A DNA stretch of 64,000 nucleotides, from the NCBI GenBank assembly GCA_965649765.1, contig OZ287758.1, positions 25,854,001 through 25,918,000 on the forward strand. The letters run 5' to 3'. Source of the stretch: Bispira polyomma. Taxonomy: Eukaryota. The translations under genes and the position numbers were made by a program. The notes under the pieces were generated by a model that was not told the DNA's origin, ran no database searches, and saw nothing but the letters and a program-made list of their open reading frames with translations. Positions 28-52,759 of the stretch are shown in pieces (the stretch's first letter is position 1; each line of letters opens with the position of its first letter).

Positions 28-84
28 CTGATACACAGGGTACGGATCTTGGGAGACCTTTATCACCGGCCGATTCTTGAAAAA
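28..84 (-). CDS. Mucin cytoplasmic exon (FFKNRPVIKVSQDPYPVYQ); last exon visible, no stop codon yet
   Basis: attgttttacag| ... CAG|gtaagt; 57 nt, phase 0-0. Confidence 0.78.
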
Positions 85-99
85 CTGTAAAACAATAGT

Positions 100-345
100 A
101 TTGTATTGTAATATATATTTTAACACACTTTATTGATGTGAGGCGTCTTCTACAAGCACAACAACCAAATCAAACACCAAATCATATGTCCTACAACATA
201 GCCTGGGTCGTCATTAGTATTCAATGGCATGTTCACATCTTGCCCAAGGATGTAATCTCGCCACTGAACCTACCAGCATTAGCAGGAGTTGGACCGACCA
301 CCTTCCAACCACCAGACCAACTTCCTAATCACTTGGCCATGTGAG
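100..345 (-). mobile_element. tRNA-derived SINE; related copies at ~9915-10065(-) and 50690-50812(+)
   Basis: tRNA-like head with degenerate A/B boxes followed by shared body catccttgggcaagatgtgaacatg. Confidence 0.6.
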
Positions 346-1348
346 ACCAGCCTTTCAGTACTACAATAGAACCTCTGTCTGGATAGTAACCTGGTGTGTG
401 ATTTTATTTGGATAACAGAATTTTATTATATTAAATCAGTAGAAAATATTTTTTTTCAGAGAATATTTTCTTTAGTGATAGGGAAATATATACTTCTTCC
501 TCAATGATGAAAAAGTTAATACTACTAAGAATAGTTAACACTAATAAGAGTAAAGAATAGTAAGAATCGTAAAATTTTGACAAACGGATACTCAGGTTTT
601 CTTTGAAAGTTTTTGGATCTTTTTACTACAATGTGAAATAACGTTAATATAATTAAGTCATACATATGCTCGTTTCTGTGGGTAATTCATTTACATTGTG
701 CTAAAACAAATAAATCATATTTAGTTCAAAATTCAATCATTTATTCTGGATTATAGAAATTATTATTCAGTTTAAATCTTAAGTAGTGTTTACATCCATG
801 CATGCACGTCATCTCTATACGGTAAACCTTGACATCACTGAGGCAAGTTCACTTGTTTTACAAGAGATCGGTTTATAATGCAAATTTATTAATTTATTTT
901 GTTCAGGGTGTCAAGATACCACACACCCAAACTACTCAGTTACTCAATTATGAAAGTGCATATTTCTTAGAACTCCAGCCATCCTGTATCCATCAAAAAT
1001 CGCTCCTGCAGCTATTTTTGACAGGTACAGATATCACACCCGCCTGTATGGGTTCAATGAAGTTGGGTTTTATGTTGCTTTTCAACAGCTTAGGTCAGAA
1101 TAGCCATTATCAATCGTGAAAGAAACCACCAGCTGAAAAATTTTCCCACACAAACATGATTAAAACCCCACATTTGTGAGAGAGGCAAGTGATTGTGAAG
1201 CAGGTGCTTCTCTAACTAGTAGACCCTACGGATGTAAAGAAACACCCTGAAAGAGATATATAAAGAGCAAAAAAATTGTAAACATGTACAGATGAAATGT
1301 ATGGATGGCTGTGACATATACATATGGAAACAAGCCATTGAAACTTAC

Positions 1349-1459
1349 ATCAGTCGTAGAGTCAACGTTTTCTAAATCAGGATTAAAGTTCTTGTAGGCG
1401 TCTGTCTTCATTATGTCACTGTTACGCATCTTGAAGCGAATCGAATTTGGATCAGCATA
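1349..1459 (-). CDS. Mucin cytoplasmic exon (YADPNSIRFKMRNSDIMKTDAYKNFNPDLENVDSTTD)
   Basis: cttttctctaccacacag| ... GAT|gtaagt; 111 nt, phase 0-0. Confidence 0.82.
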
Positions 1460-3755: not shown

Positions 3756-5114
3756 GTGTCATTTTTATCAGGCCTTTGCTATATCTCTAAGTTGGTAGAA
3801 CGCGCGGTTGCCTTACAGATCAAACAACATGTTGACGTCAGCAATCTGTCCAATAAGTATCAGTCAGCGTACAAAAGTGGTCATTCTACTGAGACTGCAC
3901 TTCTCTGCATCAAAAATGATGTTTATACATCTTTATCCAAAGGTATGCCTACTGCCTTAGTACTGCTGGATCTGTCAGCAGCCTTTGATACTATTGATCA
4001 CAAAGTTCTTCTTGAGTGCCTATCGTCCTGGTTCGGTATCAGCGGTATGGCGCTTAAGTGGTTCACGGCATATTTATCTGATAGATTCCAATCAGTTAAA
4101 ATTGGCAATATCTTATCCGACCCAACATGGTTAAAATTTGGTATTCCCCAAGGTTCCGTCCTGGGTCCCATTTTGTTTTCCATGTACACCACTCCACTCA
4201 GCAAGATTATTGCTGCATACAAAAACATAAACTTTCACTTCTATGCTGATGATACCCAACTGTACATCCACCTTACACCTGACTCTGCCCAGGTAGCTTT
4301 CACTTCCTTACAGAACTGCCTTGTTGATGTACAACACTGGATGGCAGCAAATAAACTCAAGCTGAACCCTGAGAAGACTGAGTTTATTTTGTTTGGCTCC
4401 AAGTCGCAACGGGAAAAATTGTCCAGCTGTTTTCCACTCGAGATTCTTGGCAGCAGGTTTTTTCCAGCTGACAAAATACGAAACCTGGGTGTGGTGTTCG
4501 ACTCTGAATTTTCCTTCTCGAACCATGTCGCATCGGTGTGTAGATCATGTTTTGTTGGCCTCCGTGATTTCAGGCGGATTCGACGCTATCTTTCAAAATC
4601 CACTGCAATCACTGTTGCCAATGCTTTGGTCAGCAGCAGGCTTGATTACTGCAACTCTCTGTTCCGTTCCTTATCTCGTAGTGATCTCAGACGCCTTCAG
4701 AATATCCAACACTCCTTGGCACGTATTGTGACCAAAACATCTAAATTTTCCCACATTACTCCTGTACTGAAGTCACTGCACTGGCTCCCAATAAAATATT
4801 GTGTTGCTTTCAAAACAGCAACAATAATATATAAATTTCTAAATTCTGGATTACCCACTTATTTTAGCCCCCATCTATCCAAATATACATGCTCAGTCAG
4901 GACTAGGCGCAGTAACCCTGATAAATTATACCTTAACATTCCCACTTTCGACCCTCGCATCCACAAATCCAAAGTTCAGTTCAATCACTGCCTAGCTCAT
5001 GATGGCCCCCTCATTTGGAACAGCCTACCTGATCATGTTCGTTTGGCTCAAACTTTCTCCTCTTTCAGGAGTAAGCTGAAGGCCTATCTTTTTGAACAGG
5101 CTTTTCCACCTTAG
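3756..5114 (+). CDS. LINE ORF2 fragment: reverse transcriptase and C-terminal domain (no endonuclease, no true start)
   Basis: 452-aa open frame with YADD. Confidence 0.88.
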   Translation: MSFLSGLCYISKLVERAVALQIKQHVDVSNLSNKYQSAYKSGHSTETALLCIKNDVYTSLSKGMPTALVLLDLSAAFDTIDHKVLLECLSSWFGISGMALKWFTAYLSDRFQSVKIGNILSDPTWLKFGIPQGSVLGPILFSMYTTPLSKIIAAYKNINFHFYADDTQLYIHLTPDSAQVAFTSLQNCLVDVQHWMAANKLKLNPEKTEFILFGSKSQREKLSSCFPLEILGSRFFPADKIRNLGVVFDSEFSFSNHVASVCRSCFVGLRDFRRIRRYLSKSTAITVANALVSSRLDYCNSLFRSLSRSDLRRLQNIQHSLARIVTKTSKFSHITPVLKSLHWLPIKYCVAFKTATIIYKFLNSGLPTYFSPHLSKYTCSVRTRRSNPDKLYLNIPTFDPRIHKSKVQFNHCLAHDGPLIWNSLPDHVRLAQTFSSFRSKLKAYLFEQAFPP

Positions 5115-6357: not shown

Positions 6358-6469
6358 CCATGGATATTCTGAAGCAGTGGCTCCAGCAATGTCAGTAGAA
6401 GTCTGATCACTCAGAAAATCAGCTCCACTCGAAATAGTTCCATCTTCTATGGAACCAGTAACAGCATAT
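6358..6469 (-). CDS. Mucin cytoplasmic exon (YAVTGSIEDG...ASEYPW)
   Basis: atatttttag| ... TGG|gtaagc; 112 nt, phase 2-0, open frame. Confidence 0.82.
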
Positions 6470-7035: not shown

Positions 7036-7206
7036 CGATCAGATGGTTTGTTGTCCGGGTTTTGTTTTTTTCGGGACTTGACAAACACTAACACTAGGAT
7101 GGCCACCAGTACTGCTATAATTACTAGAGAAAGACCACCTAATAGACCCATGAGTACAGAAAACTCAGAGCATTGACTGCCCAGGTAGACATAGTCATCG
7201 TGACAC
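7036..7206 (-). CDS. Mucin EGF end plus transmembrane exon (CHDDYVYLGSQCSEFSVLMGLLGGLSLVIIAVLVAILVLVFVKSRKK...)
   Basis: ttttcctttcag| ... TCG|gtgagt; 171 nt, phase 2-2; long hydrophobic helix followed by the basic stop-transfer KSRKK. Confidence 0.92.
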
Positions 7207-7239
7207 CTGAAAGGAAAACACAGATACATATACAGTCAA

Positions 7240-8030
7240 TTATATAGAACCAGAAAGGCCGCCCACTAGACCCATGAGTAGAGAAAACTCAGAGCACTGA
7301 CTGCCTAGGTAGACATAGTCATCGAGACACCTGAAAGGAAAACACAGATACATATAATATTAAGAATTAAAACATTTATAAGACGCCAAATTAATGAGAA
7401 AATCCTCTAAAGCGCTGATATCCCAAAAGGGGAAGTCCAGGGGCAAGGAAAACGTCGTTACCAGAAAGCATCCACCAAGGGAAGAGTATACAGTCAATAA
7501 TACAATCACAGAGAGGCCAGGCACTAAACCCATCAGTAGTGAGAACTTTGAGTGCTGAGTGCCCAGGAGCCGTATTCTTGAAAGATCGCCGACTCAACTC
7601 TGAATCAAGCTCAAATCTGATGTCTCTGGATAGGGTGAAGTTTTAGGTGAAATCTGGCAGCATATTTGAGTTCAGCGCTAAAAGCTCTATTAAAATGAAT
7701 GGGTCACAAGTGTAGGTTTAATTTATGTACATTGACTTTCATACCGTCTTCATTTGAACTGAGCAGGTATTGTTTTGGATATTACAGGTCCATGTGGATA
7801 TAGGCATCAAAACACCTAAAAGGTAGACAGAGATATAGTATTAATACCCAATCCATCGGTAGACTGAAGATAGAGCACTGGCTGTCGAGGTAGACATAGG
7901 CATTAAAACACCTGAAAGGTAGAGACTGGTATAGTATTATTACCCACTAGACCCATCAGGAGACAGAGAAATTAGAGCACTGAGAACCCAGGTATTCAAA
8001 GGCACCAAAATACATAAAAAGTATAGTCAT
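7240..8030 (-). repeat. Tandem partial duplicates of the TM-exon acceptor and 5' half
   Basis: Near-identical copy 124 bp upstream (starts 7330); more diverged copies near 7490-7567, 7815, 7911 and ~8010. Confidence 0.85.
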
Positions 8031-13850: not shown

Positions 13851-13869
13851 TTATACAATACTAACGCGT

Positions 13870-15855: not shown

Positions 15856-15889
15856 GTCAAATATTAAGTCAAGGTTGGTGTTTTTTTAC

Positions 15890-16142
15890 CTGCAGTCGTA
15901 CTGCCCAATCGTGTCGGCTGTTCCACTACTGCGACACACTTCATTTGTTGTTGCACATCTGTCTTCTCCATTCTCATTGGTGCAGCAGTTCTCCTCTGCG
16001 TTCATGTAGCAGATTGGTCTGCAGAGCTTTCCTATGTTAGTGACATTGCCATCTGGGGTGACTTCTTGATGGCAGTAGTAATCCCTTTCACAAACGTCAT
16101 CAATGGTGCAGGGATTTTGTGCTTCATGGACAAACGCTTCCT
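15890..16142 (-). CDS. Mucin Cys-rich/EGF-like exon (KEAFVHEAQNPCTIDDVCERDYYC...GQYDC)
   Basis: cttattcaacag| ... CAG|gtaaaa; 253 nt, phase 1-2; open frame with 10 Cys; its end forms the EGF C-x-C (CRC) with the next exon. Confidence 0.9.
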
Positions 16143-17593: not shown

Positions 17594-17844
17594 TTTCTGC
17601 TGTAAATTCTGGGGAATTTATCACTTCATCAATGTAATCCTCATCGATGGGTCTGCCTCCCACGGTTGTATTACTTTGTTTCATCTGGGGCAAAGCTGTA
17701 ATCTCCACAAATTTGACGACGTCCTCAGCCAAGTTCCCTTGTAAAACAGCTTCAGTGCTGTAAGCAACTGTGTAGCTAGCGAGCCAGGAAAATCCTTCTG
17801 TCTGACGTTTTTGGCGATGATGCAGGTTTATTGGATTAACTTCT
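17594..17844 (-). CDS. Mucin SEA-like domain part 3 (EVNPINLHHRQKRQTEGFSWLASYTVAY...INSPEFTAE)
   Basis: ctatattccag| ... AAA|gtaagg; 251 nt, phase 2-1; lies inside ORF 17565..17915. Confidence 0.88.
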
Positions 17845-19053: not shown

Positions 19054-19121
19054 CTTGTGAGATTAGTAATAACAAGTCCTTCAAACCCAAGATCCGAAGA
19101 AGGGTGGAAGATGAAGTGCAA
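19054..19121 (-). CDS. Mucin SEA-like domain part 2 (LHFIFHPSSDLGFEGLVITNLTR)
   Basis: ttaatttcag| ... AAG|gtaaaa; 68 nt, phase 0-2, exactly bridging the neighbouring exons. Confidence 0.85.
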
Positions 19122-21959: not shown

Positions 21960-22051
21960 AGTAGCCAGTAGATCACTTTCAACTTCTTGGCTGGTATCAC
22001 TTTGACTCCAATCAAACTGAATCGAAAGCTTGAATCTTATAACCTTCTCTT
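21960..22051 (-). CDS. Mucin SEA-like domain part 1 (EEKVIRFKLSIQFDWSQSDTSQEVESDLLAT)
   Basis: gttttgcag| ... ACT|gtaagt; 92 nt, phase 1-0; alternating hydrophobic strand followed by an amphipathic helix, as at the start of SEA domains. Confidence 0.85.
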
Positions 22052-23435: not shown

Positions 23436-23480
23436 CTAGATCTGGTGGTATATAATCTTGAGGAGGTATAGGCGGTTTTT
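23436..23480 (-). CDS. Mucin Pro-rich linker exon (EKPPIPPQDYIPPDL)
   Basis: tattttacag| ... TAG|gtaagt; 45 nt, phase 1-1. Confidence 0.85.
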   Translation of the reverse strand, partial: KNRLYLLKIIYHQI

Positions 23481-30200: not shown

Positions 30201-33200
30201 TTTCACTGTCTTCCGTTGTGGATACATCTTGTTCAGTGGTAGACATTCCACCAGTAGTGACAATGCTAGATACTGTTATGTCTTGATCAGATGTAACTTC
30301 AGGCTGACTTGTGACATCACCATTGCTAGTTGTTTCACTGTCTCCTGTTGTAGATACATCTTGTTCAGTGGTAGGCATTCCACTAGTAGTTACAATGCTA
30401 GATATTGTTATGTCTTCATCAGTTATAACTTCAGGCTGAGTTGTGACATCACCACTGCTAGTTGTTTCAGTGGCTCCTGTTGTGGATACACCTTGTTCAG
30501 TGGTAGACATTCCACCAGTAGGGATAATGCTAGATACTGTTATGTCTTTATCAGTTGTAACTTCAGGTTGACTTGTGACATCATCACTGCTAGTTGTTTC
30601 AGTGTCTCCTGTTGTGGATACATCTTGTTCAGTGGTAGGCATTCCACCAGTAGTGACAATGCTAGATATTGTTATGTCTTCATTAGTTGTAACTTCAGGC
30701 TGAGTTGTGACATCACCACTGCTAGTTGTTTCACTGTCTTCTGTTGTGGATACATCTTGTTCAGTGGTAGATATTCCACCAGTAGTGACAATGCTAGATG
30801 CTGTTGTGGCTTGATCAGTTGTAACTTCAGTCGGAGTTGTGACATCACCACTACTAGTTGTTTTACTGTCTTCTGTTGTGGATACATCCTGTTCAGTGGT
30901 AGGCATTCCACCAGTAGTGACAATGCCAGATATTGTTATGTCTTGATCAGATGTAACTTCAGGCTGACTTGTGACATCACCACTGCTAGTTGTTTCAGTG
31001 GCTCCTGTTGTGGATACATCTGATTCAGTGGTAGGCATTCCACCAGTAGTGACAATGCTAGATATTGTTATGTCTTTATCAGTTGTAACTTCAGGCTGAG
31101 TTGTGATATCAACACTGCTAGTTGTTTCACTTTCTTCTGCTGTGGATACATCTTCTATAGTGGTAGATATTGCACCAGTAGTGATAATGCTAGATACTCT
31201 TATGTCTTGATCAGTTGTAACTTCAGGCTGAGTTGTGACATCACCACTACTAGTTGTTTCACTGTCTTCTGTTGTGGATACATCTTGCTCAGTGGTAGAT
31301 ATTCCACCAGTAGTGAAAATGCTAGATACTGTTATGTCTTCATCAGTTGTAACTTCAGGCTGACTTGTGACATCACCACTGCTAGTTGTTTCACTTTCTT
31401 CTGTTGTGGATACATCTTGATCAGTGGTAGACATTCCACCAGTAGTGACAATGCCAGATATTGTTATGTCTTTATCAGTTGTAACTTCAGGCTGAGTTGT
31501 GACATCAACACTGCTAGTTGTTTCACTGTCTTCTGTTGTGGATACATCTTGTTCAGTGGTAGACATTCCACCAGTAGTGATAATGCTAGATACTGTTATG
31601 TCTTCATCAGTTGTAACTTCAGGCTGAGTTGTGACATCATCACTACTAGTTGTTTCACTGTCTTCTGCTGTGGATACATCTTGTTCAGTGGTAGACATTC
31701 CACCAGTAGTGAAAATGTTAGATACTGTTATGTCTTCATCAGTTGAAGCTTCAGTCGGAGTTGTGATATCAACACTGCTGGTTGTTTCACTGTCTTCTGT
31801 TGTGGATACATCTTGTTCAGTGGTAGACATTCCGCTAGTAGTGACAATGCTAGATACTGTTATGTCTTTATCAGTTGTAACTTCAGGCTGAGTTGTGACA
31901 TCAACACTGCTAGTTGTTTCACTGTCTTCTGCTGTGGATACATCTTCTATTGTGGTAGATATTCCACCAGTAGTGATGATGCTAGATACAGTTATGACTT
32001 CATCAGTTGTAACTTCAGTCGGAATTGTGACATCACCACTGCTAGTTGTTTCACTGTCTTCTGTTGTGGATACATCTTGTTCAATGGTAGACATTCCACC
32101 AGTAGTGACAATGCTAGATACTGTTATGTCTTCATCAGTTGTAACTTCAGTCGGAGTTGTGACATCACTGCTAGTTGTTTCACTATCTTCTGTTGTGGAT
32201 ACATCTTCTTCAGTGGTAGACATTCCACCAGTAGTGACAATGCTAGATGCTGTTGTGGCTTGATCAGTTGTAACTTCAGTCAGAGTTGTGACATCACCCA
32301 AACTAGTTGTTTCACTGTCTTCTGTTGTTGACACATCTTGTTCAGTGGTAGACATTCCACCAGTAGTGACAATGCCAGATGCTGTTATGTCTTGATCAGT
32401 TGTAACTCCAGGCTGAGTTGTGACATCAACACTGCTAGCTGTTTCACTGTCTCCTGTTGTAGATACATCTTGTTCAGCGGTAGGCATTCCACTAGTAGTT
32501 ACAATGCTAGATATTGTTATGTCTTCATCAGTTGTAACTTCAGGCTGAGTTGTGACATCACCCACACTAGTTGTTTCACTGTCTTCCGTTGTGGATACAT
32601 CTTGTTCAGTGGTAGACATTCCACCAGTAGTGACAATGCTAGATACTGTTATGTCTTTATCAGTTGTAACTTCAGGTTGACTTGTGACATCATCACTGCT
32701 AGTTGTTTCAGTGTCTCCTGTTGTGGATACATCTTGTTCAGTGGTAGGCATTCCACCAGTAGTGACAATGCTAGATATTGTTATGTCTTCATTAGTTGTA
32801 ACTTCAGTCTGAGTTGTGACATCACCACTGCTAGTTGTTTCACTGTCTTCTGTTGTGGATACATCTTGTTCAGTGGTAGATATTCCACCAGTAGTGACAA
32901 TGCTAGATGCTGTTATGTCTTGATCAGTTGTAACTTCAGTCGGAGTTGTGACATCACCACTACTAGTTGTTTCACTGTCTTCTGTTGTGGATACATCCTG
33001 TTCAGTGGTAGGCATTCCACCAGTAGTTACAATGCCAGATATTGTTATGTCTTGATCAGTTATAACTTCAGGCTGAGTTGTGACATCACCACTGCTAGTT
33101 GTTTCAGTGGCTCCTGTTGTGGATACATCTGATTCAGTGGTAGGCATTCCACCAGTAGTGACAATGCTAGATATTGTTATGTCTTTATCAGTTGTAACTT

Positions 33201-36200
33201 CAGGCTGAGTTGTGATATCAACACTGCTAGTTGTTTCACTGTCTTCTGCTGTGGATACATCTTCTATAGTGGTAGATATTCCTCCAGTAGTGATAATGCT
33301 AGATACTGTTATGTCTTGATCAGTTGTAACTTCAGGCTGAGTTGTGACATCACCACTATTAGTTGTTTCACTGTCTTCTGTTGTGGATACATCTTGCTCA
33401 GTGGTAGATATTCCACCAGTAGTGAAAATGCTAGATACTGTTATGTCTTGATCAGTTGTAACTTCAGGCTGACTTGTGACATCACCACTGCTAGTTGTTT
33501 CACTTTCTTCTGTTGTGGATACATCTTGATCAGTGGTAGACATTCCACCAGTAGTGACAATGCCAGATATTGTTATGTCTTTATCAGTTGTAACTTCAGG
33601 CTGAGTTGTGACATCAACACTGCTAGTTGTTTCACTGTCTTCTGCTGTGGATACATCTTCTAGAGTGGTAGATATTCCACCAGTAGTGATGATGCTAGAT
33701 ACTGTTATGTCTTCATCAGTTGTAACTTCAGTCGGAGTTGTGACATCACTGCTAGTTGTTTCACTTTCTTCTGTTGTGGATACATCTTCTTCAGTGGTAG
33801 ACATTCCACCAGTAGTGACAATGCTAGATGCTGTTGTGGCTTGATCAGTCGTAACTTCAGTCAGAGTTGTGACATCACCCACACTAGTTGTTTCACTGTC
33901 TTCTGTTGTGGATACATCTTGTTCAGTGGTAGACATTCCACCAGTAGTGACAATGCTAGATGCTGTTATGTCTTTATCAGTTGTAATTTCAGTTCGGGTT
34001 GTGACATCACCACTGCTAGTTGTTTCACTGTCTCCTGTTGTAGATACATATTGTTCAGTGGTAAGCATTCCACTAGTAGTTACAATGCTAGATATTGTTA
34101 TGTCTTCATCAGTTATAACTTCAGGCTGAGTTGTGACATCAACACTGCTAGTTGTTTCACTGTCTTCTGCTGTGGATACATCTTCTAGAGTGGTAGATAT
34201 TCCACCAGTAGTGATAATGCTAGATACTGTTATGTCTTCATCAGTTGTAACTTCAGTCGGAGTTGTGACATCAACACTGCTAGCTGTTTCACTGTCTCCT
34301 GTTGTAGATACATCTTGTTCAGCGGTAGGCATTCCACTAGTAGTTACAATGCTAGATATTGTTATGTCTTCATCAGTTGTAACTTCAGGCTGAGTTGTGA
34401 CATCAACACTGCTAGCTGTTTCACTGTCTCCTGTTGTAGATACATCTTGTTCAGTGGTAGACATTCCGCTAGTAGTGACAATGCTAGATACTGTTATGTC
34501 TTCATCAGTTATAACTTCAGGCTGAGTTGTGACATCACCACTGCTAGTTGTTTCAGTGGCTCCTGTTGTGGATACATCTTGTTCAGTGGTAGACATTCCA
34601 CCAGTAGGGATAATGCTAGATACTGTTATGTCTTTATCAGTTGTAACTTCAGGTTGACTTGTGACATCATCACTGCTAGTTGTTTCAGTGTCTCCTGTTG
34701 TGGATACATCTTGTTCAGTGGTAGGCATTCCACCAGTAGTGACAATGCTAGATATTGTTATGTCTTCATTAGTTGTAACTTCAGGCTGAGTTGTGACATC
34801 ACCACTGCTAGTTGTTTCACTGTCTTCTGTTGTGGATACATCTTGTTCAGTGGTAGATATTCCACCAGTAGTGACAATGCTAGATGCTGTTATGTCTTGA
34901 TCAGTTGTAACTTCAGTCGGAGTTGTGACATCACCACTACTAGTTGTTTCACTGTCTTCTGTTGTGGATACATCCTTTTCAGTGGTAGGCATTCCACCAG
35001 TAGTGACAATGCCAGATATTGTTATGTCTTGATCAGATGTAACTTCAGGCTGACTTGTGACATCACCACTGCTAGTTGTTTCAGTGGCTCCTGTTGTGGA
35101 TACATCTGATTCAGTGGTAGGCATTCCACCAGTAGTGACAATGCTAGATATTGTTATGTCTTTATCAGTTGTAACTTCAGGCTGAGTTGTGACATCAACA
35201 CTGCTAGTTGTTTCACTGTCTTCTGCTGTGGATACATCTTCTAGAGTGGTAGATATTCCACCAGTAGTGATAATGTTAGATACTGTTATGTCTTCATCAG
35301 TTGTAACTTCAGTCGGAGTTGTGACATCACCACTGCTAGTTGTTGTAGGTACATCTTGTTCAGTGGTAGGCATTCCACCAGTAGTGACAATGCCAGATAT
35401 TGTTATGTCTTTATCAGTTGTAACTTCAGGCTGAGTTGTGACATCAACACTGCTAGTTGTTTCACTGTCTTCTGTTGTGGATACATCTTGTTCAGTGGTA
35501 GACATTCCACCAGTAGTGATAATGCTAGATACTGTTATGTCTTCATCAGTTGTAACTTCAGGCTGAGTTGTGACATCATCACTACTAGTTGTTTCACTGT
35601 CTTCTGTTGTGGATACATCTTGTTCAGTGGTAGACATTCCACCAGTAGTGAAAATGTTAGATACTGTTATGTCTTCATCAGTTGAAGCTTCAGTCGGAGT
35701 TGTGATATCACCACTGCTGGTTGTTTCACTGTCTTCTGTTGTGGATACATCTTGTTCAGTGGTAGACATTCCACCAGTAGTGACAATGCTAGATACTGTT
35801 ATGTCTTTATCAGTTGTAACTTCAGACTGAGTTGTGACATCAACACTGCTAGTTGTTTCACTGTCTTCTGCTGTGGATACATCTTCTATTGTGGTAGATA
35901 TTCCACCAGTAGTGATGATGCTAGATACAGTTATGACTTCATCAGTTGTAACTTCAGTCGGAGTTGTGACATCACCACTGCTAGTTGTTTCACTGTCTTC
36001 TGTTGTGGATACATCTTGTTCAATGGTAGACATTCCACCAGTAGTGACAATGCTAGATACTGTTATGTCTTCATCAGTTGTAACTTCAGTCGGAGTTGTG
36101 ACATCACTGTTAGTTGTTTCACTTTCTTCTGTTGTGGATACATCTTCTTCAGTGGTAGACATTCCACCAGTAGTGACAATGCTAGATGCTGTTGTGGCTT

Positions 36201-39200
36201 GATCAGTTGTAACTTCAGTCAGAGTTGTGACATCACCCACACTAGTTGTTTCACTGTCTTCTGTTGTGGATACATCTTGTTCAGTGGTAGACATTCCACC
36301 AGTAGTGACAATGCTAGATGCTGTTATGTCTTTATCAGTTGTAATTTCAGTTCGGGTTGTGACATCACCACTGCTAGTTGTTTCACTGTCTCCTGTTGTA
36401 GATACATATTGTTCAGTGGTAAGCATTCCACTAGTAGTTACAATGCTAGATATTGTTATGTCTTCATCAGTTATAACTTCAGGCTGAGTTGTGACATCAC
36501 CACTGCTAGTTGTTTCAGTGGCTCCTGTTGTGGATACATCTTGTTCAGTGGTAGACATTCCACCAGTAGGGATAATGCTAGATACTGTTATGTCTTTATC
36601 AGTTGTAACTTCAGGTTGACTTGTGACATCATCACTGCTAGTTGTTTCACTGTCTCCTGTTGTGGATACATCTTGTTCAGTGGTAGGCATTCCACCAGTA
36701 GTGACAATGCTAGATATTGTTATGTCTTCATTAGTTGTAACTTCAGGCTGAGTTGTGACATCAACACTGCTAGTTGTTTCACTGTCTTCTGCTGTGGATA
36801 CATCTTCTATAGTGGTAGATATTCCACCAGTAGTGATAATGCTAGATACTGTTATGTCTTCATCAGTTGTAACTTCAGGCTGAGTTATGACATCACCACT
36901 ACTAGTTGTTTCACTGTCTTCTGTTGTGGATACATCTTGCTCAGTGGTAGATATTCCACCAGTAGTGAAAATGCTAGATACTGTTATATCTTGATCAGTT
37001 GTAACTTCAGGCTGACTTGTGACATCACCACTGCTAGTTGTTTCACTTTCTTCTGTTATGGATACATCTTGATCAGTGGTAGACATTCCACCAGTAGTGA
37101 CAATGCCAGATATTGTTATGTCTTTATCAGTTGTAACTTCAGGCTGAGTTGTGACATCAACACTGCTAGTTGTTTCACTGTCTTCTGCTGTGGATACATC
37201 TTCTAGAGTGGTAGATATTCCACCAGTAGTGATAATGCTAGATACTGTTATGTCTTCATTAGTTGTAACTTCAGTCGGAGTTGTGACATCAACACTGCTA
37301 GTTGTTGTGGATACATCTTGTTCAGTGGTAGACATTCCACCAGTAGTGAAAATGTTAGATACTGTTATGTCTTCATCAGTTGAAGCTTCAGTCGGAGTTG
37401 TGATATCACCACTGCTGGTTGTTTCACTGTCTTCTGTTGTGGATACATCTTGTTCAGTGGTAGACATTCCGCTAGTAGTGACAATGCTAGATACTGTTAT
37501 GTCTTTATCAGTTGTAACTTCAGGCTGAGTTGTGACATCAACACTGCTAGTTGTTTCACTGTCTTCTGCTGTGGATACATCTTCTATTGTGGTAGATATT
37601 CCACCAGTAGTGATGATGCTAGATACAGTTATGACTTCATCAGTTGCAACTTCAGTCGGAGTTGTGACATCACCACTGCTAGTTGTTTCACTGTCTTCTG
37701 TTGTGGATACATCCTGTTCAATGGTAGACATTCCACCAGTAGTGACAATGCTAGATACTGTTATGTCTTCATCAGTTGTAACTTCAGTCGGAGTTGTGAC
37801 ATCACTGCTAGTTGTTTCACTTTCTTCTGTTGTGGATACATCTTCTTCAGTGGTAGACATTCCACCAGTAGTGACAATGCTAGATGCTGTTGTGGCTTGA
37901 TCGGTTGTAACATCACCCACACTAGTTGTTTCACTGTCTTCTGTTGTGGATACATCTTGTTCAGTGGTAGACATTCCACCAGTAGTGACAATGCTAGATG
38001 CTGTTATGTCTTTATCAGTTGTAATTTCAGTTCGGGTTGTGACATCACCACTGCTAGTTGTTTCACTGTCTCCTGTTGTAGATACATCTTGTTCAGTGGT
38101 AAGCATTCCACTAGTAGTTAAAATGCTAGATATTGTTATGTCTTCATCAGTTATAACTTCAGGCTGAGTTGTGACATCAACACTGCTAGTTGTTTCACTG
38201 TCTTCTGTTGTGGATACATCTTGTTCAGTGGTAGACATTCCACCAGTAGGGATAATGCTAGATAGTGTTATGGCTTTATCAGTTGTAACTTCAGGTTGAC
38301 TTGTGACATCACCACTGCTAGTTGTTTCACTGTCTTCTGTTGTGGATACATCTTGTTCAGTGGTAGATATTCCACCAGTAGTGATAATGCTAGATGCTGT
38401 TATGTCTTGATCAGTTGTAACTTCAGTCCGAGTTGTGACATCACCACTACTAGTTGTTTCACTGTCTTCTGTTGTGGATACATCCTGTTCAGTGGTAGGC
38501 ATTCCACCAGTAGTGATAATGCCAGATATTGTTATGTCTTTATCAGTTGTAACTTCCGGCTGAGTTGTGACATCACTCACACTAGTTGTTTCACTGTCTT
38601 CCGTTGTGGATACATCTTGTTCAGTGGTAGACATTCCACCAGTAGTGATAATGCTAGATACTGTTATGTCTTGATCAGAAGTAACTTCAGGCTGACTTGT
38701 GACATCACCACTGCTAGTTGTTTCAGTGGCTCCTGTTGTGGATACATCTGATTCAGTGGTAGGCATTGCACCAGTAGTGACAATGCTTAATGCTGTTATG
38801 TCTTTATCAGTTGTAACTTCAGGCTGAGTTGTGACATCAACACTGCTAGTTGTTTCACTGTCTTCTGTTGTGGATACATCTTCTATAGTGGTAGATATTC
38901 CATCAGTAGTGATAATTCTAGATACTGTTATGTCTTGATCAGTTGTAACTTCAGGCTGAGTTATGACATCACCACTACTAGTTGTTTCACTGTCTTCTGT
39001 TGTGGATACATCTTGCTCAGTGGTAGATATTCCACCAGTAGTGAAAATGCTAGATACTGTTATGTCTTGATCAGTTGTAACTTCAGGCTGACTTGTGACA
39101 TCACCACTGCTAGTTGTTTCACTTTCTTCTGTTGTGGATACATCTTGATCAGTGGTAGACATTCCACCAGTAGTGACAATGCCAGATATTGTTATGTCTT

Positions 39201-42200
39201 TATCAGTTGTAACTTCAGGCTGAGTTGTGACATCAACACTGCTAGTTGTTTCACTGTCTTCTGTTGTGGATACATCTTCTATAGTGGTAGATATTCCTCC
39301 AGTAGTGATAATGCTAGATACTGTTATGTCTTGATCAGTTGTAACTTCAGGCTGAGTTATGACATCACCACTACTAGTTGTTTCACTGTCTTCTGTTGTG
39401 GATACATCTTGCTCAGTGGTAGATATTCCACCAGTAGTGAAAATGCTAGATACTGTTATGTCTTGATCAGTTGTAACTTCAGGCTGACTTGTGACATCAC
39501 CACTGCTAGTTGTTTCACTTTCTTCTGTTGTGGATACATCTTGATCAGTGGTAGACATTCCACCAGTAGTGACAATGCCAGATATTGTTATGTCTTTATC
39601 AGTTGTAACTTCAGGCTGAGTTGTGACATCAACACTGCTAGTTGTTTCACTGTCTTCTGCTGTGGATACATCTTCTAGAGTGGTAGATATTCCACCAGTA
39701 GTGATAATGCTAGATACTGTTATGTCTTCATCAGTTGTAACTTCAGTCGGAGTTGTGACATCACCACTGCTAGTTGTTGTAGGTACATCTTGTTCAGTGG
39801 TAGGCATTCCACCAGTAGTGACAATGCTAGATGCTGTTATGTCTTTATCAGTTGTAACCTCATGTTGAGTTGTGACATCACCCACACTAGTTGTTTCACT
39901 GTCTTCGGTTGTAGGTACATCTTGTTCAGTTGTATGTATTCCTCCAGTAGTGGCAATGCTATCGGTTGTTATGTCTTTGTCTGTTGTAACCTCAGACTGA
40001 GTTGTGATATCACCCACACTAGTTGTTTCACTGTCTTCTGTTGTGGACACATCTTGTTCAGTGGTAGACATTCCACCAGTAGTGACAATGCTATCTGTTG
40101 TTATGTCTTTGTCTGTTGTAACCTGATGTTGAGTTGTGACATCACCTACACTAGTAGTTTCACTGTCTTCTGTTGTAGATACATCTTCTTCGGTTGTATA
40201 TATTCCTCCAGTAGTGACAATGCTACCTGTTGTTATGTCATTGTCTGTTGTAACCTCATGTCGAGTTGTGACATCACCCACACTAGTTGTTTCACTGTCT
40301 TCTGCTGTGGATACATCTTGTTCAGTTGTATGTATTCCTCCAGTAGTGACAATGCTATCTATTGTTATGTCTTTGTCTGTTGTAACCTCAAATTGAGTTG
40401 TGAAATCACCAACACTAGTTACTTCACTGTATTCTGTTGTAGATACATCTTGTTCAATTGTATGTATTCCTCCAGTAGTGATAATGCTATCTGTTGTTAT
40501 GTCTTTGTCTGTTGTAACCTTAGGCTGAGTTGTGACATGACCCACACTAGTTGTTTCACTGTCTTCTGTTGTACTTACATCTTGATCAGTTGTATGTATT
40601 CCTCCAGTAGTGACAATGCTATCGGTTGTTATGTCTTTGTCTGTTGTAACCTCAGGCTGAGTTGTGACATCACCCACACTAGTTGTTTCACTGTCTTCTG
40701 TTGTAGGTATATTTTGTTCAGTTGTATGTATTTCTTCAGTGGTGACAATGCTATCGGTTGTTATGTAATTGTCTGTTGTAATCTCAGGCTGAGTTGTGAT
40801 ATCACCCACACTAGTTGTTTCACTGTCTTCTGTTGTGGACACATCTTGTTCAGTGGTAGACATTCCACCAGTAGTGACAATGCTATCTGTTGTTATGTCT
40901 TTGTCTGTTGTAACCTGATGTCGAGTTGTGACATCACCTACACTAGTAGTTTCACTGTCTTCCGTTGTAGGTACATCTTGTTCAGTTGTATGTATTCCTC
41001 CAGTAGTGACAATGCTATCTGTTGTTATGTCTTTGTCTGTTGTAACCTCAGGCTGAGTTGTGACATGACCGACACTAGTTGCTTCACTGTCTTCTGTTGT
41101 ACTTACATCTTGTTCAGTTGTATGTATATCTGCAGTAGTGACAATGCTATCTGTTGTTATGTCTTTGTCTGTTGTAACCTCAAATTGAGTTGTGAAATCA
41201 CCCACACTAGTTACTTCACTGTCTTCTGTTGTAGGTACATCTTGTTCAGTTGTATGTATTTCTCCAGTAGTGACAATGCTATCTGTTGTTATGTCTTTGT
41301 CTGTTGTAACCTGATGTCGAGTTGTGACATCACCCACACTAGTTGTTTCACTGTCTTCAGTTGTAGGTACATCTTGTTCAGTTGTATGTATTCCTCCAGT
41401 AGTGACAATGCTATCTGTTGTTATGTCTATGTCTGTTGTAATCTCAGGCTGAGTTGTGCCATCACCCACACTAGTTGTTTCACTGTCTTCTGTTGTGGAT
41501 ACATCTTGTTCAGTGGTGGACATTCCATCAGTAGTGATAATGCTATCTGTTGTTATGTCTTTGTCTGTTGTAACCTTAGGCTGAGTTGTGACTTCACCCA
41601 CACTAGTTGTTTCACTGTATTCTGTTGTAGATACATCTTGTTCAGTTGTATATATTCCTCCAGTAGTGACAATGCTATCTGTTGTTATGTCCTTGTCTGT
41701 TGTAACCTCATATCGAGTTGTGACATCACCCACACTAGTTGTTTCACTGTCTTCTGTTGTGGATACATCTTGTTTAGTGGTGGACATTCCACCATTAGTG
41801 ACAATGCTATCTGTTGTTATGTCTTTGTCTGTTGTAACCTCAAATTGAGTTGTGACATCACCCACACTAGTTACTTCACTGTCTTCTGTTGTAGGTACAT
41901 CTTGTTCAGTTGTATGTATTCCTCCAGTAGTGATAATGCTATCTGTTGTTATGTCTTTGTCTGTTGTAACCTTAGGCTGAGTTGTGACATGACCCACACT
42001 AGTTGTTTCACTGTCTTCTGTTGTACTTACATCTTGTTCAGTTGTATGTATTTCTGCAGTAGTGACAATGCTATCTGTTGTTATGTCTTTGTCTGTTGTA
42101 ACCTCAGGCTGAGTTGTGACATCACCCACACTAATTGTTTCACTGTCTTCGGTTGTAGGTATATTTTGTTCAGTTGTATGTATTCCTCCAGTAGTGGCAA

Positions 42201-45200
42201 TGCTATCTGTTGTTATGTTTTTATCTGTTGTAACCTCAGTCTGAGTTGTGATATCACCCACACTAGTTGTTTCACTGTCTTCTGTTGTAGGTACATCTTG
42301 TTCAGTTGTATGTATTTCTCCAGTAGTGACAATGCTATCTATTGTTATGTCTTTGTCTGTTGTAACCTCAAATTGAGTTGTGAAATCACCCTCACTAGTT
42401 ACTTCACTGTCTTCTGTTGTAGGTACATCTTGTTCAGTTGTATGTATTTCTCCAGTAGTGACAATACTATCTGTTGTTATGTCTTTGTCTGTTGTAACCT
42501 GATATCGAGTTGTGACATCACCCACACTAGTTGTTTCACTGTCTTCAGTTGTAGGTACATCTTGTTCAGTTGTATGTATTCCTCCAGTAATGGCAATGCT
42601 ATCGGTTGTTATGTCTTTGTCTGTTGTAACCTCAGGCTGAGTTGTGACATCACCCACACTAGTTGTTTCACTGTCTTCTGTTGTAAGTACATCTTGTTCA
42701 GTTGTATGTATTTCTCCAGTAGTGACAATGCTATCTGTTGTTATGTCTTTGTCTGTTGTAACCTTAGGCTGAGTTGTGACATCACCCACACTAGTTGTTT
42801 CACTGTATTCTGTTGTAGATACATCTTGTTCAGTTGTATATATTCCTCCAGTAGTGACAATGCTATCTGTTGTTATTTCCTTGTCTGTTGTAACCTCATG
42901 TCGAGTTGTGACATCACCCACACTAGTTGTTTCACTGTCTTTTGTTGTGGATACATCTTGATCAGTTGTATGTATTCCTCCAGTAGTGACAATGCTATCG
43001 GTTGTTATGTATTTGTCTGTTGTAATCTCAGGCTGAGTTGTGCCATCACCCACACTAGTTGTTTCACTGTCTTCTGTTGTGGATACATCTTGTTCAGTGG
43101 TGGACATTCCATCAGTAGTGATAATGCTATCTGTTGTTATGTCTTTGTCTGTTGTAACCTCAGACTGAGTTGTGACATCACCCAAACTAGTTGTTTCAAC
43201 GTTTTCTCTTGTAGGTATATTTTGTTCAGTTGTATGTATTTCTTCAGTGGTGACAATGCTATCTGTTGTTATACCTTTGTCTGTTGTAACCTCATGTCGA
43301 GTTGTGACATCACCCACACTAGTTGTTTCACTGTCTTCTGTTGTAGGTACATCTTGTTCAGTTGTATGTATTCCTCCAGTAGTGGCAATGCTATCGGTTG
43401 TTATGTCTTTGTCTGTTGTAACCTCAGGCTGAGTTGTGACATCACCCACACTAGTTGTTTCACTGTATTCTGTTGTAAGTACATCTTGTTCAGTTGTATA
43501 TATTCCTCCAGTAGTGACAATGCCATCTGTTGTTATGTCTTTGTCTGTTGTAACCTCAGGCTGAGTTGTGACATCACCCACACTAGTTGTTTCACTGTCT
43601 TCTGTTGTAAGTACATCTTGTTCAGTTGTATGTATTTCTCCAGTAGTGACAATGCTATCTGTTGTTATGTCTTTGTCTGTTGTAACCTTAGGCTGAGTTG
43701 TGACTTCACCCACACTAGTTGTTTCACTGTATTCTGTTGTAGATACATCTTGTTCAGTTGTATATATTCCTCCAGTAGTGACAATGCTATCTGTTGTTAT
43801 GTCCTTGTCTGTTGTAACCTCATATCGAGTTGTGACATCACCCACACTAGTTGTTTCACTGTCTTCTGTTGTGGATACATCTTGTTTAGTGGTGGACATT
43901 CCACCATTAGTGACAATGCTATCTGTTGTTATGTCTTTGTCTGTTGTAAGCTCAGGCTGAGTTGTGACATCACCCACACTAGTTGTTTCACTGTCTTCTG
44001 TTGTAGGTATATTTTGTTCAGTTGTATGTATTTCTTCAGTGGTGGCAATGCTATCGGTTGTTATGTATTTGTCTGTTGTAATCTCAGGCTGAGTTGTGCC
44101 ATCACCCACACTAGTTGTTTCACTGTCTTCTGTTGTGGATACATCTTGTTCAGTGGTGGACATTCCATCAGTAGTGATAATGCTATCTGTTGTTATGTCT
44201 TTGTCTGTTGTAACCTTAGGCTGAGTTGTGACTTCACCCACACTAGTTGTTTCACTGTATTCTGTTGTAGATACATCTTGTTCAGTTGTATATATTCCTC
44301 CAGTAGTGACAATGCTATCTGTTGTTATGTCCTTGTCTGTTGTAACCTCATATCGAGTTGTGACATCACCCACACTAGTTGTTTCACTGTCTTCTGTTGT
44401 GGATACATCTTGTTTAGTGGTGGACATTCCACCATTAGTGACAATGCTATCTGTTGTTATGTCTTTGTCTGTTGTAACCTCAAATTGAGTTGTGACATCA
44501 CCCACACTAGTTACTTCACTGTCTTCTGTTGTAGGTACATCTTGTTCAGTTGTATGTATTCCTCCAGTAGTGATAATGCTATCTGTTGTTATGTCTTTGT
44601 CTGTTGTAACCTTAGGCTGAGTTGTGACATGACCCACACTAGTTGTTTCACTGTCTTCTGTTGTAGGTATATTTTGTTCAGTTGTATGTATTTCTTCAGT
44701 GGTGGCAATGCTATCGGTTGTTATGTATTTGTCTGTTGTAATCTCAGGCTGAGTTGTGCCATCACCCACACTAGTTGTTTCACTGTCTTCTGTTGTGGAT
44801 ACATCTTGTTCAGTGGTGGACATTCCATCAGTAGTGATAATGCTATCTGTTGTTATGTCTTTGTCTGTTGTAACCTTAGGCTGAGTTGTGACTTCACCCA
44901 CACTAGTTGTTTCACTGTATTCTGTTGTAGATACATCTTGTTCAGTTGTATATATTCCTCCAGTAGTGACAATGCTATCTGTTGTTATGTCCTTGTCTGT
45001 TGTAACCTCATATCGAGTTGTGACATCACCCACACTAGTTGTTTCACTGTCTTCTGTTGTGGATACATCTTGTTTAGTGGTGGACATTCCACCATTAGTG
45101 ACAATGCTATCTGTTGTTATGTCTTTGTCTGTTGTAACCTCAAATTGAGTTGTGACATCACCCACACTAGTTACTTCACTGTCTTCTGTTGTAGGTACAT

Positions 45201-46712
45201 CTTGTTCAGTTGTATGTATTCCTCCAGTAGTGATAATGCTATCTGTTGTTATGTCTTTGTCTGTTGTAACCTTAGGCTGAGTTGTGACATGACCCACACT
45301 AGTTGTTTCACTGTCTTCTGTTGTACTTACATCTTGTTCAGTTGTATGTATTTCTGCAGTAGTGACAATGCTATCTGTTGTTATGTCTTTGTCTGTTGTA
45401 ACCTCAGGCTGAGTTGTGACATCACCCACACTAATTGTTTCACTGTCTTCGGTTGTAGGTATATTTTGTTCAGTTGTATGTATTCCTCCAGTAGTGGCAA
45501 TGCTATCTGTTGTTATGTTTTTATCTGTTGTAACCTCAGTCTGAGTTGTGATATCACCCACACTAGTTGTTTCACTGTCTTCTGTTGTAGGTACATCTTG
45601 TTCAGTTGTATGTATTTCTCCAGTAGTGACAATACTATCTGTTGTTATGTCTTTGTCTGTTGTAACCTGATATCGAGTTGTGACATCACCCACACTAGTT
45701 GTTTCACTGTCTTCAGTTGTAGGTACATCTTGATCAGTTGTATGTATTCCTCCAGTAGTGACAATGCTATCGGTTGTTATGTCTTTGTCTGTTGTAACCT
45801 CAGGCTGAGTTGTGACATCACCCACACTAGTTGTTTCACTGTCTTCTGTTGTAGGTATATTTTGTTCAGTTGTATGTATTTCTTCAGTGGTGACAATGCT
45901 ATCGGTTGTTATGTAATTGTCTGTTGTAATCTCAGGCTGAGTTGTGCCATCACCCACACTAGTTGTTTCACTGTCTTCTGTTGTGGATACATCTTGTTCA
46001 GTGGTGGACATTCCATCAGTAGTGATAATGCTATCTGTTGTTATGTCTTTGTCTGTTGTAACCTCAGACTGAGTTGTGACATCACCCAAACTAGTTGTTT
46101 CAACGTTTTCTCTTGTAGGTATATTTTGTTCAGTTGTATGTATTTCTTCAGTGGTGACAATGCTATCTGTTGTTATACCTTTGCCTGTTGTAACCTCATG
46201 TCGAGTTGTGACATCACCCACACTAGTTGTTTCACTGTCTTCGGTTGTAGGTACATCTTGTTCAGTTGTATGTATTCCTCCAGTAGTGGCAATGCTATCG
46301 GTTGTTATGTCTTTGTCTGTTGTAACCTCAGGCTGAGTTGTGATATCACCCACACTAGTTGTTTCACTGTCTTCTGTTGTAGGTATATTTTGTTCAGTTG
46401 TATGTATTTCTCCAGTAGTGACAATGCTATCTGTTGTTATGTCTTTGTCTGTTGTAACCTGATGTCGAGTTGTGACATCACCTACACTAGTTGTTTCACT
46501 GTCTTCCGTTGTAGGTACATCTTGTTCAGTTGTATGTATTCCTCCAGTAGTGACAATGCTATCTGTTGTTATGTCTTTGTCTGTTGTAACCTCAGGCTGA
46601 GTTGTGATATCACCCACACTAGTTACTTCACTGTCTTCTGTTGTAGGTATATTTTGTTCAATGGTAGTCATTCCACTAGTAGTGACAGTGCTAGATACTG
46701 TTATGTTTTCAT
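24291..46712 (-). CDS. Mucin giant repeat exon (22,422 nt), ~170 copies of a 132-bp/44-aa Thr/Ser/Asp/Glu-rich unit
   Basis: Uninterrupted 7464-aa ORF in the track. Acceptor tttttgttcag| at 46713 and donor CAG|gtacaa at 24290; phase 1-1; all internal indels keep the frame. Confidence 0.95.
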
Positions 46713-49526: not shown

Positions 49527-49804
49527 TGTCTTTTTAGAAGACAAGTTTTTAAATTGTCATGATTTATACATGCAAACACACACAAAGATAAGGATGTCAA
49601 CAGATCCGTTTTGGGGGTGTTTTTAGAGCCGCATTCATAAAATTTACATTAGTTTGCATTTACATATCAAAGAGAAATATTCTAATGAAATCCAGTTGAT
49701 GTACACAAATTCATTTTAAATGATGAAGCACATGTTATTTTAACTTCCTCTTTACATTACCAGTCTGGGTTTTATATATTCTTCTCTGCAGGATGTTTTA
49801 AGGC

Positions 49805-50169
49805 CTGGGGCCGTATTCACAAAGATTCTTAATCTTCAAATTACTCTTATTCTTAGAATTGTTTTTATAGAAAATTCTTAGATTAAGAAAAGTTGTAAGA
49901 ATAAGAGTAATTCCAGGAGTAAGAATAAAATTGTTTACAATTGTTGCTTTCTTAATCTTAGATTTGTTTTAAAAGAATTAGTACCCACAAATTTTTGTAC
50001 CATACTTGAATTATACTTAGCCTCATTCAAATTAATATTATTTTTTAAAATCTAGGAATAAGAAAAAAATTGTATTCTTTGAATTTGTGTTATAAATTTT
50101 TTAGTCTAAGAAAAATTCTAAGAATCACTGTAATTTTAGGAATAAGAATCTTTGCGAATAAGGCCCCAG
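49805..50169. mobile_element. GGGCCGTATTCAC-type MITE, near-palindromic
   Basis: ggggccgtattcacaaagattctta ... taagaatctttgcgaataaggcccc. Confidence 0.75.
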
Positions 50170-50390
50170 GAATTTTGTTTTTAAGACCACACTCATATGT
50201 GGCCATATTGAAATCAAAAGGCTTGAACTTACAATTTATCTGAAATAATCTTCAAACATGGCCTGCTGTATCATTATTCACCAGAAACATATCTAAATTC
50301 TCACTGCATAACTGGGTGACAAGGTGCTGTAGACGATTGTACCCTTCACTTAAATAATTTAGAGATAGAAATAAAATGAATTGTCTCTAC

Positions 50391-50454
50391 CTGCCCCTGT
50401 TCTTGTTGGACACAGTAAAGTGACCAAAACAGCCAACCATCCTACAGTTATCAT
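50391..50454 (-). CDS. Mucin coding exon 1: signal peptide MITVGWLAVLVTLLCPTRTGA
   Basis: Acceptor ttattttccag at 50463, 8 nt of UTR, ATG at 50454, hydrophobic core and T-G-A end. Donor CAG|gtagag is phase 1 and joins the giant exon in frame (G|AT = Asp). Confidence 0.8.
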
Positions 50455-52759
50455 CTTTTTGTCTGGAAAATAAAATAAAGCATATAAAGGAATGCTATAT
50501 ATTGTGTCGGTTTCAATTTAAATTTGTATTTAGATGCGTTTGACATCATTTCATGTCTAGGTCGTATCAGGATGGTCAGATTTTTTTTTACGATGTCGAA
50601 AAACACATGGCATTTTCTGACCTAAATTTTGATATAATAATGAGCAATAAAATCATTTGGAATTGTGAGTTATATTTTTTCCTTCCCTTGGGCCTTAGTG
50701 GTTGGTTTAGGAATTTGGTCTCTTGATCCAAAGGTTCCCAGTTTCACTCCTGTTAACACAATATTTGTCACTGAGGGATAACACATCCTTGGGGCCAGAT
50801 GTGTGAACATGGTATTGTATTTTGCATATTTTGCATAAAGTGTCTTATTTATGCAAGGCATCTTCTACAGCACAACAACAGAATCCATTATACCAATTGA
50901 CAAGTCCAAACTACACAGCCATGTCGTACATGATGGGGGGGGGGGGGGGTGTACAGGAGAGAACTAAGCCAGTTTGTATGGTTTGAAGAAAAAAACAGAA
51001 AAGTATTTCCAGGGATTTACGCTCAACTTTCAGACTATTCCGTAACATAGGGGCGCCAAGTGAGAAAGCTAAAGATGTAGTCATCTAGTGGGTTTTACAG
51101 AGGAAACCAAAAGTCTCTTTCCTTTCTTGAGGTTACCGAAGAAAAGACGAGTAGTAAGGTAGGAGGGCTGTTGAGAGACAAAAGCTTTAAAAGTGCTGAC
51201 ATGGATTTGAAACGAAATTCGATAATTTGATTAAGAACCCAATGTAATTTTCAGAGAGTATGGAGAGACATCAATACAGATGTCCAGACGCGCAGTGACC
51301 ATACCATACCAATATAGTTTGAATGGACATGCCACAATTGACCACTGATGGCGACCAATACTGTGCTGTATAACTATAACTATATATATATATATATATA
51401 GATATATATATAGTAGATTTATTTTAAATCCGAAAAGCCATATTTTATGGCTTCAAAAATTCCTTCTAGGGTGGCGGACTGTGTGTATATAGTGAACATT
51501 TTGCACCAGAAAATAACTTCAGCTATTTCATTAAATGAACTTGCTTGGTAAAAATTGATTCCCAGTAAAATTGTATTTATCTTGCTTTACTAAAAATTGG
51601 TCAACAGTGAAAATTAATTTTCAGTGGATTTCTTAAAACAATTGTCAATTTTTTCCAACTTACGCAGTATCTGACTTTATTTTATGTAGTTATTGAGTGT
51701 GTGTGACATAAACTATTTGTTCAAGGTACATTCACCTGCTACTATTCATAAAAAGTTATTTCAGGCCATATAATCTATAGTTTTGGGTAATAAATTAGTT
51801 ATTCAAGTGGTTTTCTTTGTTTGTCCAAAAAATCTGACCTTAAAAAACACCGTGCCATGCAAAATCTCCCCTTTGCAAAAGGTGCGTTGATTTATTAAAG
51901 TATGGCAAAAAATATAGATCAAACAAGGATATATTACTTCCTTATTTGTTTGGTTCATGTGGGTATTCTTTAAAGAGGTAAAAGACCATAAATCACCAGC
52001 TTTGTCAAGTTATATATCAAATCATCACTAAACCACTGAAATTATTACTCTGGAGTATAGTTTAAATTGAAAAGCATTTTGGTTTCTGTTGGTCCCCCAA
52101 AATGGGTACTTAAAACACAATTTAATTGCAGTGAATTTAGACTATTCTCAGTTACATTTCCCTTTATATATCTACGTCTTAAAGATATCATATTCCCTAA
52201 TTTTTGCAATTAACAAGTTCCCCACGTAAAATTCTTCAATTATGAAAGGTTTTGTACTGATAAGTATAGACTAAAATCACTGTAATCAATGTGTTAATAC
52301 CAACGCCAACAACATAGGGTGTCAAATAGATCATGTGGTCCAATAACTCTCATTTAGCCTACACTTCATTTCAGCTGATTCTGACGTCAGCTGACTTATT
52401 AAAATCTGAGCCGAGATACTTAAGTTTAAATACGGGCATCCCTCTTTAGTTCACTTTTTGTGGACTGCTGTCCTTCTTTTTCTGAGTCATTTCTCGTTTT
52501 TTACACTATAAGATCAGAACTACCAATATTGGCTAAAAGTCTTCATTGTCATTAGCAAAGATTGAAAATTGAATTTATTCATTTTAGTTGAAATATCGGA
52601 TAGACCTTCCAATTTTTTTGCTCCATGACCGATTACATCTGATGGTGTAACAGATGTCTGCCGACATCTGATCAGATGCAAATTTGTTCAAAGGAAGGAG
52701 TTCCTAAGATGTACAGTGACCGAAACCTTCGGCCGAAAAGGATTTTTTGGGGGGAATTG

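Follow-up and report, generated by a model that had tools for sequence, protein, structure and literature searches.

Membrane mucins of the MUC3/MUC12/MUC17 group are defined, in the excerpted text of PMC13643018, by a large tandem-repeat domain with abundant proline, threonine and serine (PTS) that lies in a single exon, and the loop of their SEA domain carries the self-cleaving motif G-S-[V/I]-V-V. Every complete primate MUC3A, MUC3B, MUC12 and MUC17 gene has ten C-terminal exons, and MUC3A and MUC3B have a single first exon of 21 amino acids (aa) (PMC9578598 S6 Table). Outside vertebrates, a sea-anemone 'mucin1-like' protein with a signal peptide, PTS, SEA and a transmembrane (TM) segment has been reported from transcriptomes (excerpt of PMC9080433). 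Here we describe a locus of Bispira polyomma in a window of 64,000 nucleotides (nt), which is the whole stretch analysed (C11:25854001-25918000). With a probability of roughly 0.68, we read it as one single-copy gene of 12 exons for a type-I membrane mucin of about 7,890 aa, whose acidic stalk, predicted to be O-glycosylated, would stand on an epithelium and be held by a likely SEA-like tether with predicted furin cleavage.

Eleven minus-strand GT-AG exons within the window join into a frame of 7,882 codons with no stop (ATG at 50454), the junction phases across exons 1–11 being 1,1,1,0,2,1,2,2,0,0. In order, the protein comprises a signal peptide, a repeat stalk, a likely SEA-like domain, 12 cysteines, a TM helix and a 117-aa tail. 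This independent reconstruction recovered the eleven in-phase exons of an initial annotation of the locus, and the three junctions quoted there (50391^46712, 24291^23480 and 15890^7206) are all GT-AG. The gene extent given by that annotation is nevertheless incomplete, as a likely twelfth exon lies outside the window. Its acceptor is the first strong one past the window, and an AATAAA is found 142 nt from its start; this exon likely closes the protein at 7,891 aa, making 12 coding exons. At the other end, exon 1 starts at a splice acceptor, so that an untranslated upstream exon probably exists. The signal peptide was called by eye from a hydrophobic core and small residues at -3/-1.

The splice sites were scored with a simple position weight matrix of our own, with every AG/GT site between 24290 and 28 as background. 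All eleven donors rank in the top 7.2% of GT sites and 10 of the 11 acceptors in the top 8.1% of AG sites; the exon 9 acceptor is weak (top 33.5%). No competing strong in-phase exon was found with this matrix in introns 2–10. Among 20,000 random draws of AG-started segments with the same nine lengths, 0 were free of stops; draws hitting N were skipped, and the null is one of random segments, not of a reader choosing among sites. The exons that follow the repeat lack a separate signal peptide, which favours a single transcript. The gene model is real and well supported, with its splicing predicted. The gene looks single-copy: searches of the 1.035-Gb assembly (75 contigs) with exons 6, 7, 8 and 10 and with the repeat returned no paralogues, and the database searches that were run found no homologues of the protein.

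Exon 2 carries 171 repeat anchors, with 152 units of exactly 44 aa and 97 distinct protein variants, arranged as a 5' block of 52 and a 3' block of 100 units whose DNA is 80% alike. The repeat consists of 29.8% Thr and 13.1% Ser (42.9% together), with 20.5% Asp+Glu, 2.5% Pro, 1.7% Lys+Arg and no Cys. The PTS content of the exon (45.4%) can be set beside the values quoted for MUC1 (44.8) and MUC5AC (45.6) in the excerpted supplement of PMC9578598. In all 17 shortened units the missing stretch measures 3, 15 or 18 nt, reflecting about three independent events; in contrast, a 54-bp minisatellite in an intron of the gene has frameshifting 52-nt units. Among the one-change neighbours of common codons, 122 of 483 are seen overall, compared with none of the 10 stop codons and none of the 10 Cys codons, an absence with a probability of about 0.003 as computed by hand assuming independence. 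With only in-frame insertions and deletions and none of the reachable stop or Cys codons, the repeats are under protein-level constraint.

The gene resembles MUC3A and MUC3B in its 1+1+10 exons, its 21-aa first exon and its giant PTS exon, and the single-exon PTS domain typical of the MUC3/MUC12/MUC17 group corresponds to the 22,422-nt exon 2. A Cys-rich region, a single TM helix and a tail are also common to the Bispira protein and this group, whose juxtamembrane SEA domain may have a counterpart in exons 4–6. The ten 3' exons of MUC3/12/17 encode 350–368 aa versus 396 aa in the Bispira gene, which is a comparison of counts and not of human intron phases. The length is not exceptional for the family, because MUC3B has 13,477 aa (PMC9578598 S6 Table). 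However, there are several differences. The Bispira protein lacks the self-cleaving motif and has a furin-type R-Q-K-R instead; it has no EGF before the SEA-like domain, since no Cys occurs between aa 15 and 7659; its C-terminus has no Ser/Thr at -2 and so no class I PDZ end; and its repeat is acidic and poor in Pro. The synteny of the group (ACHE, TRIM56/SERPINE1 and clustered paralogues) was not seen in the approximately 40 kb downstream and 30 kb upstream that were read, where the neighbours are CAND1 and a vWA gene. As the self-cleaving motif, the pre-SEA EGF, the class I PDZ end and the synteny all fail, we do not file the gene as a MUC3/12/17 member. The MUC3/MUC12/MUC17 architecture proposed by the initial annotation therefore stands for the MUC3A/B layout, but not for the cleavage site, the pre-SEA EGF or the PDZ end.

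The PTS domains of MUC13 and HEG1 are short, and several exons encode PTS in chicken and zebrafish Muc13. These proteins are otherwise similar in combining PTS, SEA (MUC13), EGF, a TM segment and a tail (excerpt of PMC1552070). The sea-anemone protein likewise has a membrane mucin architecture outside vertebrates, but an EGF-like region, a giant repeat exon, a furin site and the gene structure are not described in the excerpted text of PMC9080433. No earlier description of an invertebrate SEA mucin of giant size and furin type was present among the literature matches listed, and the excerpts of PMC4948705, PMC1552070, PMC8542881 and PMC12172626 contain nothing on such a protein. SEA-type membrane mucins are already known; what is likely new here is a giant invertebrate one with predicted furin-type cleavage.

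The assignment of a likely SEA-like domain draws on gene structure. At 18 SEA loci examined in the same genome, the best first donor is in phase 0 after helix 1 in 14 (one of them weak) and in phase 2 in four. Three-exon modules were reconstructed for four Pfam-detected SEA genes; all four have phases 1-0-2-1, and their middle exons measure 68, 68, 68 and 62 nt. Exons 4–6 of the mucin have the same phases, 1-0-2-1, and the same 68-nt middle exon. By eye, the alternating hydrophobic strands and helices of these exons follow the order of a SEA domain. Their exon-anchored similarity to seven SEA domains of the same genome (the four three-exon modules and three others with only one of the two introns) had p values of 0.012, 0.097 and 0.179, or about 0.01 when combined by hand, in a test picked after a whole-domain profile had failed. 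For the match to hold, about 10 residues must be deleted before helix 1 and about 16 inserted at the loop. From the intron phases, the exon length and this weak similarity, which profiles miss, exons 4–6 quite probably form a divergent SEA fold.

No R-x-K/R-R other than R-Q-K-R (aa 7574-7577) occurs in the 7,882-aa frame. This site sits ten residues after the phase-2 intron, which is followed by x-Gly-Ser in the SEA genes of the same genome, and lies within a loop that is longer than in those genes. A Gly-Ser-aliphatic self-cleaving motif is absent from aa 7496-7650. We infer from the intron position that R-Q-K-R lies in the loop between strands 2 and 3. In this loop the SEA domain of MUC1 self-cleaves, while in Notch2 and GPR126 furin makes the cut, at (R/K)-x-K-R (excerpt of PMC6954182). 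With our loop assignment, the Bispira protein would share with GPR126/ADGRG6 and Notch an R-x-K-R where MUC1 self-cleaves (PMC6954182, same excerpt); those proteins, however, are signalling receptors (seven-transmembrane and Notch) without a giant mucin stalk.

The 12 extracellular Cys fall at aa 7659-7744, and the single TM helix has a Kyte-Doolittle value of 3.31, the next internal peak being 1.02. The tail spans 117 aa. The 12-Cys region, the one TM helix and a tail of more than 100 aa had all been proposed in the initial annotation and are confirmed. The predicted C-terminus carries Ile at position -2 and Val at position 0, which holds only if exon 12 is right and which we take to be a class II-type PDZ pattern. 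The tail across exons 10-11 and 23 C-terminal MUC17 residues (excerpt of PMC6705488) have 5/23 ungapped identities by eye, which is not significant alone.

A mechanism can be proposed in which the signal peptide would route the protein into the endoplasmic reticulum. The Thr and Ser residues would be O-glycosylated and, together with 20% Asp/Glu, would produce an extended polyanionic brush of about 1.5–1.9 micrometres, with 0.20-0.25 nm per residue taken as a rule of thumb. A furin-type convertase in the Golgi may cut the loop between strands 2 and 3 of the SEA-like domain in place of the self-cleavage of MUC1/3/12/17. The two halves would stay non-covalently bound until shear or pulling parts them and sheds the stalk, and the 117-aa tail would guide trafficking and retention. 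This scheme draws on the gene anatomy and on the behaviour of the SEA domains of MUC1 and MUC17 (excerpts of PMC13643018 and PMC6954182).

Several observations weigh against this reading and are considered here together with the alternatives to it. Within the stalk, pN/pS (nonsynonymous relative to synonymous differences) among repeat units is 0.83, so that the constraint on amino acids is loose. Exon 2 also contains an exact duplication of 2,221 bp, either recent or an assembly effect, so the assembled exon length could be off. In an otherwise identical protein, the stalk could instead serve chiefly as a matrix coat of acidic proteoglycan or Ca-binding type (cuticle, egg-coat or biomineral), with glycosaminoglycan on Ser-Gly. 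This would agree with the abundance of Asp+Glu (20.5%), the scarcity of Lys+Arg (1.7%) and Pro (2.5%), the predicted isoelectric point of about 4.05 and the 86 Ser-Gly dipeptides set among acidic residues; Ser-Gly flanked by acidic residues is a known xylosylation context. The genome has a second gene with an acidic Thr-rich stalk and SEA, which fits the same idea. However, Thr (29.8%) far exceeds the Ser-Gly sites, the PTS content is the same as in canonical mucins and the gene is laid out like those of gut mucins. We therefore consider a predominantly matrix-coat function unlikely, while the acidic backbone and the 86 Ser-Gly sites leave some proteoglycan-like role possible.

The exon joins are predicted from genomic DNA; no RNA run was among the sequencing runs listed, and the three examined all behave as genomic DNA. 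An AATAAA lies 136 nt into intron 2, where read-through of the exon-2 donor reaches a stop after four codons. In addition, the exon 8 acceptor is duplicated at 7330, along with a partial exon copy (7207..7356, minus strand) that is 92% identical. The acceptors at 7330 and 7206 share an identical 24-nt tract, and use of the former would lead to a stop after 29 codons with the TM helix incomplete. Transcripts could therefore end in intron 2 or splice to 7330, which would make the main products secreted and the membrane form a minor one; alternatively, joins between the repeat and TM exons could be rare. But AATAAA is frequent in this region (1.5 per kb), which makes a single match in intron 2 unremarkable, and the downstream exons retain an intact frame and strong splice sites. 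Moreover, the copy at 7330 belongs to a decaying series in which the 5' part of exon 8 and its acceptor are duplicated repeatedly upstream (7252-7994, minus strand) with identities of 92, 81, 75 and 74%. Mainly secreted products are, in our estimate, quite unlikely.

The membrane mucin reading also has to account for the failure of domain searches. Pfam found no SEA and no EGF in eight single-exon pieces, and a genome-wide search with PF01390 gave 21 places, the mucin locus not among them. A profile of the seven SEA domains from the same genome scored the spliced region at -0.5 bits, a value reached by 612 of 2,000 shuffles, whereas held-out members of that profile score 11-45 bits. The hhalign comparison was no better than shuffles, and the one high pairwise SEA score is out of register. 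The EGF likeness of the 12-Cys region is weak, with 41 of 2,000 shuffles as high. Neither the SEA nor the EGF named in the initial annotation reached convincing significance with a profile from Pfam or from the genome itself; for the former, the phases, exon length and weak exon-anchored similarity remain, and for the latter, the weakly EGF-like 12-Cys region. It is very unlikely that exons 4-6 of the membrane mucin are an unrelated fold or loose spacer with a basic site that serves for simple shedding and frees the stalk at once, as the failed whole-domain profiles and the deletion and insertion required might suggest, because four intron phases and the 68-nt exon match and the strands and helices are in SEA order, with weakly positive exon-anchored scores. 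The proposal of the initial annotation that one gene encodes a giant type-I membrane mucin-like protein in an invertebrate is supported, with a layout like that of MUC3A/B.

Table 1. Coordinates of the predicted mucin gene (positions in the window unless a contig is given)
Feature	Position	Strand	Description
Exon 1	50391..50462	-	8 nt of 5' untranslated region, ATG at 50454, predicted 21-aa signal peptide
Exon 2	24291..46712	-	22,422 nt; about 170 Thr/Ser/Asp/Glu-rich 44-aa repeats in two sub-blocks
Exon 3	23436..23480	-	Linker rich in Pro, without Cys; phase 1-1
Exon 4	21960..22051	-	Start of likely SEA-like domain (strand 1, helix 1); phase 1-0
Exon 5	19054..19121	-	68 nt; middle exon of SEA-like domain; phase 0-2
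Exon 6	17594..17844	-	SEA-like domain, cleavage loop and second half; phase 2-1
R-Q-K-R furin-type site	17805..17816	-	aa 7574-7577
Exon 7	15890..16142	-	10 of 12 extracellular Cys; EGF-like with atypical spacing
Exon 8	7036..7206	-	Final 2 Cys, TM helix (7154-7080), basic stop-transfer residues
Exon 9	6358..6469	-	Cytoplasmic tail; weak acceptor
Exon 10	1349..1459	-	Tail; one Y-x-x-hydrophobic motif; start of stretch weakly resembling MUC17 tail
Exon 11	28..84	-	Tail; ends in strong donor
Intron 11 start	1..27	-	Intron 11 is 706 nt
Exon 12 (likely, beyond window)	C11:25853321 downward	-	9 codons, then TGA TAA

A CAND1 gene on the plus strand converges on the 3' end of the mucin gene, and one of its exons matches a PDB CAND1 chain at 50/63 residues by hand count. 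Innexin gave 77 matches in this genome and connexin 0, the latter with control genomes that could not have registered a match; together with CAND1 we take this to indicate a non-chordate invertebrate, probably a protostome. The upstream neighbour, also on the plus strand and thus opposite to the mucin, has one exon with a vWA match in Pfam (E 2.3e-6) and another that appears EF-hand-like by eye, without a Pfam match. Several introns carry repeats. In intron 4, the minisatellite at 19729-21723 consists of 37 copies of 54 bp, with long open reading frames (ORFs) on both strands that are interrupted by the 52-nt units; its Pfam scan gave repeat-driven matches only and no passing stretch, and we take its unit to resemble a DNA-transposon end. 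Intron 9 contains a fragment of a LINE-type (long interspersed nuclear element) reverse transcriptase at 3711-5114 on the plus strand (RVT_1 E 4.7e-30), with very high depth in the genomic runs. Tandem arrays of 48 bp (10015-10455) and 43 bp (17288-17585) were also observed, the latter beginning at the exon 6 donor. Simple AAC/AAT-type repeats at 59206-59464 and 60030-60314 create local short ORFs, which were not taken as exons.

Elsewhere in the genome, the second acidic mucin-like gene (C3:27397313-27401400, minus strand) has a 1,330-aa open frame leading into a canonical three-exon SEA; the frame contains 27.7% Thr, 12.4% Ser, 11.9% Glu and 9.8% Asp, and no 3' end could be located over 29 kb. 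Further SEA genes with EGF and TM exons are located on C5, C6, C8, C10, C13 and C1, and in one gene on C10 the TM segment precedes SEA (type II layout).

Shared ancestry with the human MUC3/12/17 genes is possible but unproven. The stronger proposal, a true protostome orthologue that descends from a bilaterian ancestor with a 12-exon giant SEA-EGF-TM mucin and this tail, and in which furin replaced self-cleavage, seems to us rather doubtful. Given the other SEA-EGF-TM genes and the second acidic Thr-rich SEA stalk in this genome, orthology is no more likely than independent assembly from a common toolkit. A complete giant invertebrate example with the exon layout of MUC3A/B makes ancestry and convergence testable through intron positions and tail alignments. 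The gene would also offer a natural test of whether a tethered mucin needs SEA cleavage as such rather than self-cleavage. Finally, since such genes escape exon-by-exon Pfam and homology searches of the kind used here, more of them have probably been missed in invertebrate genomes.

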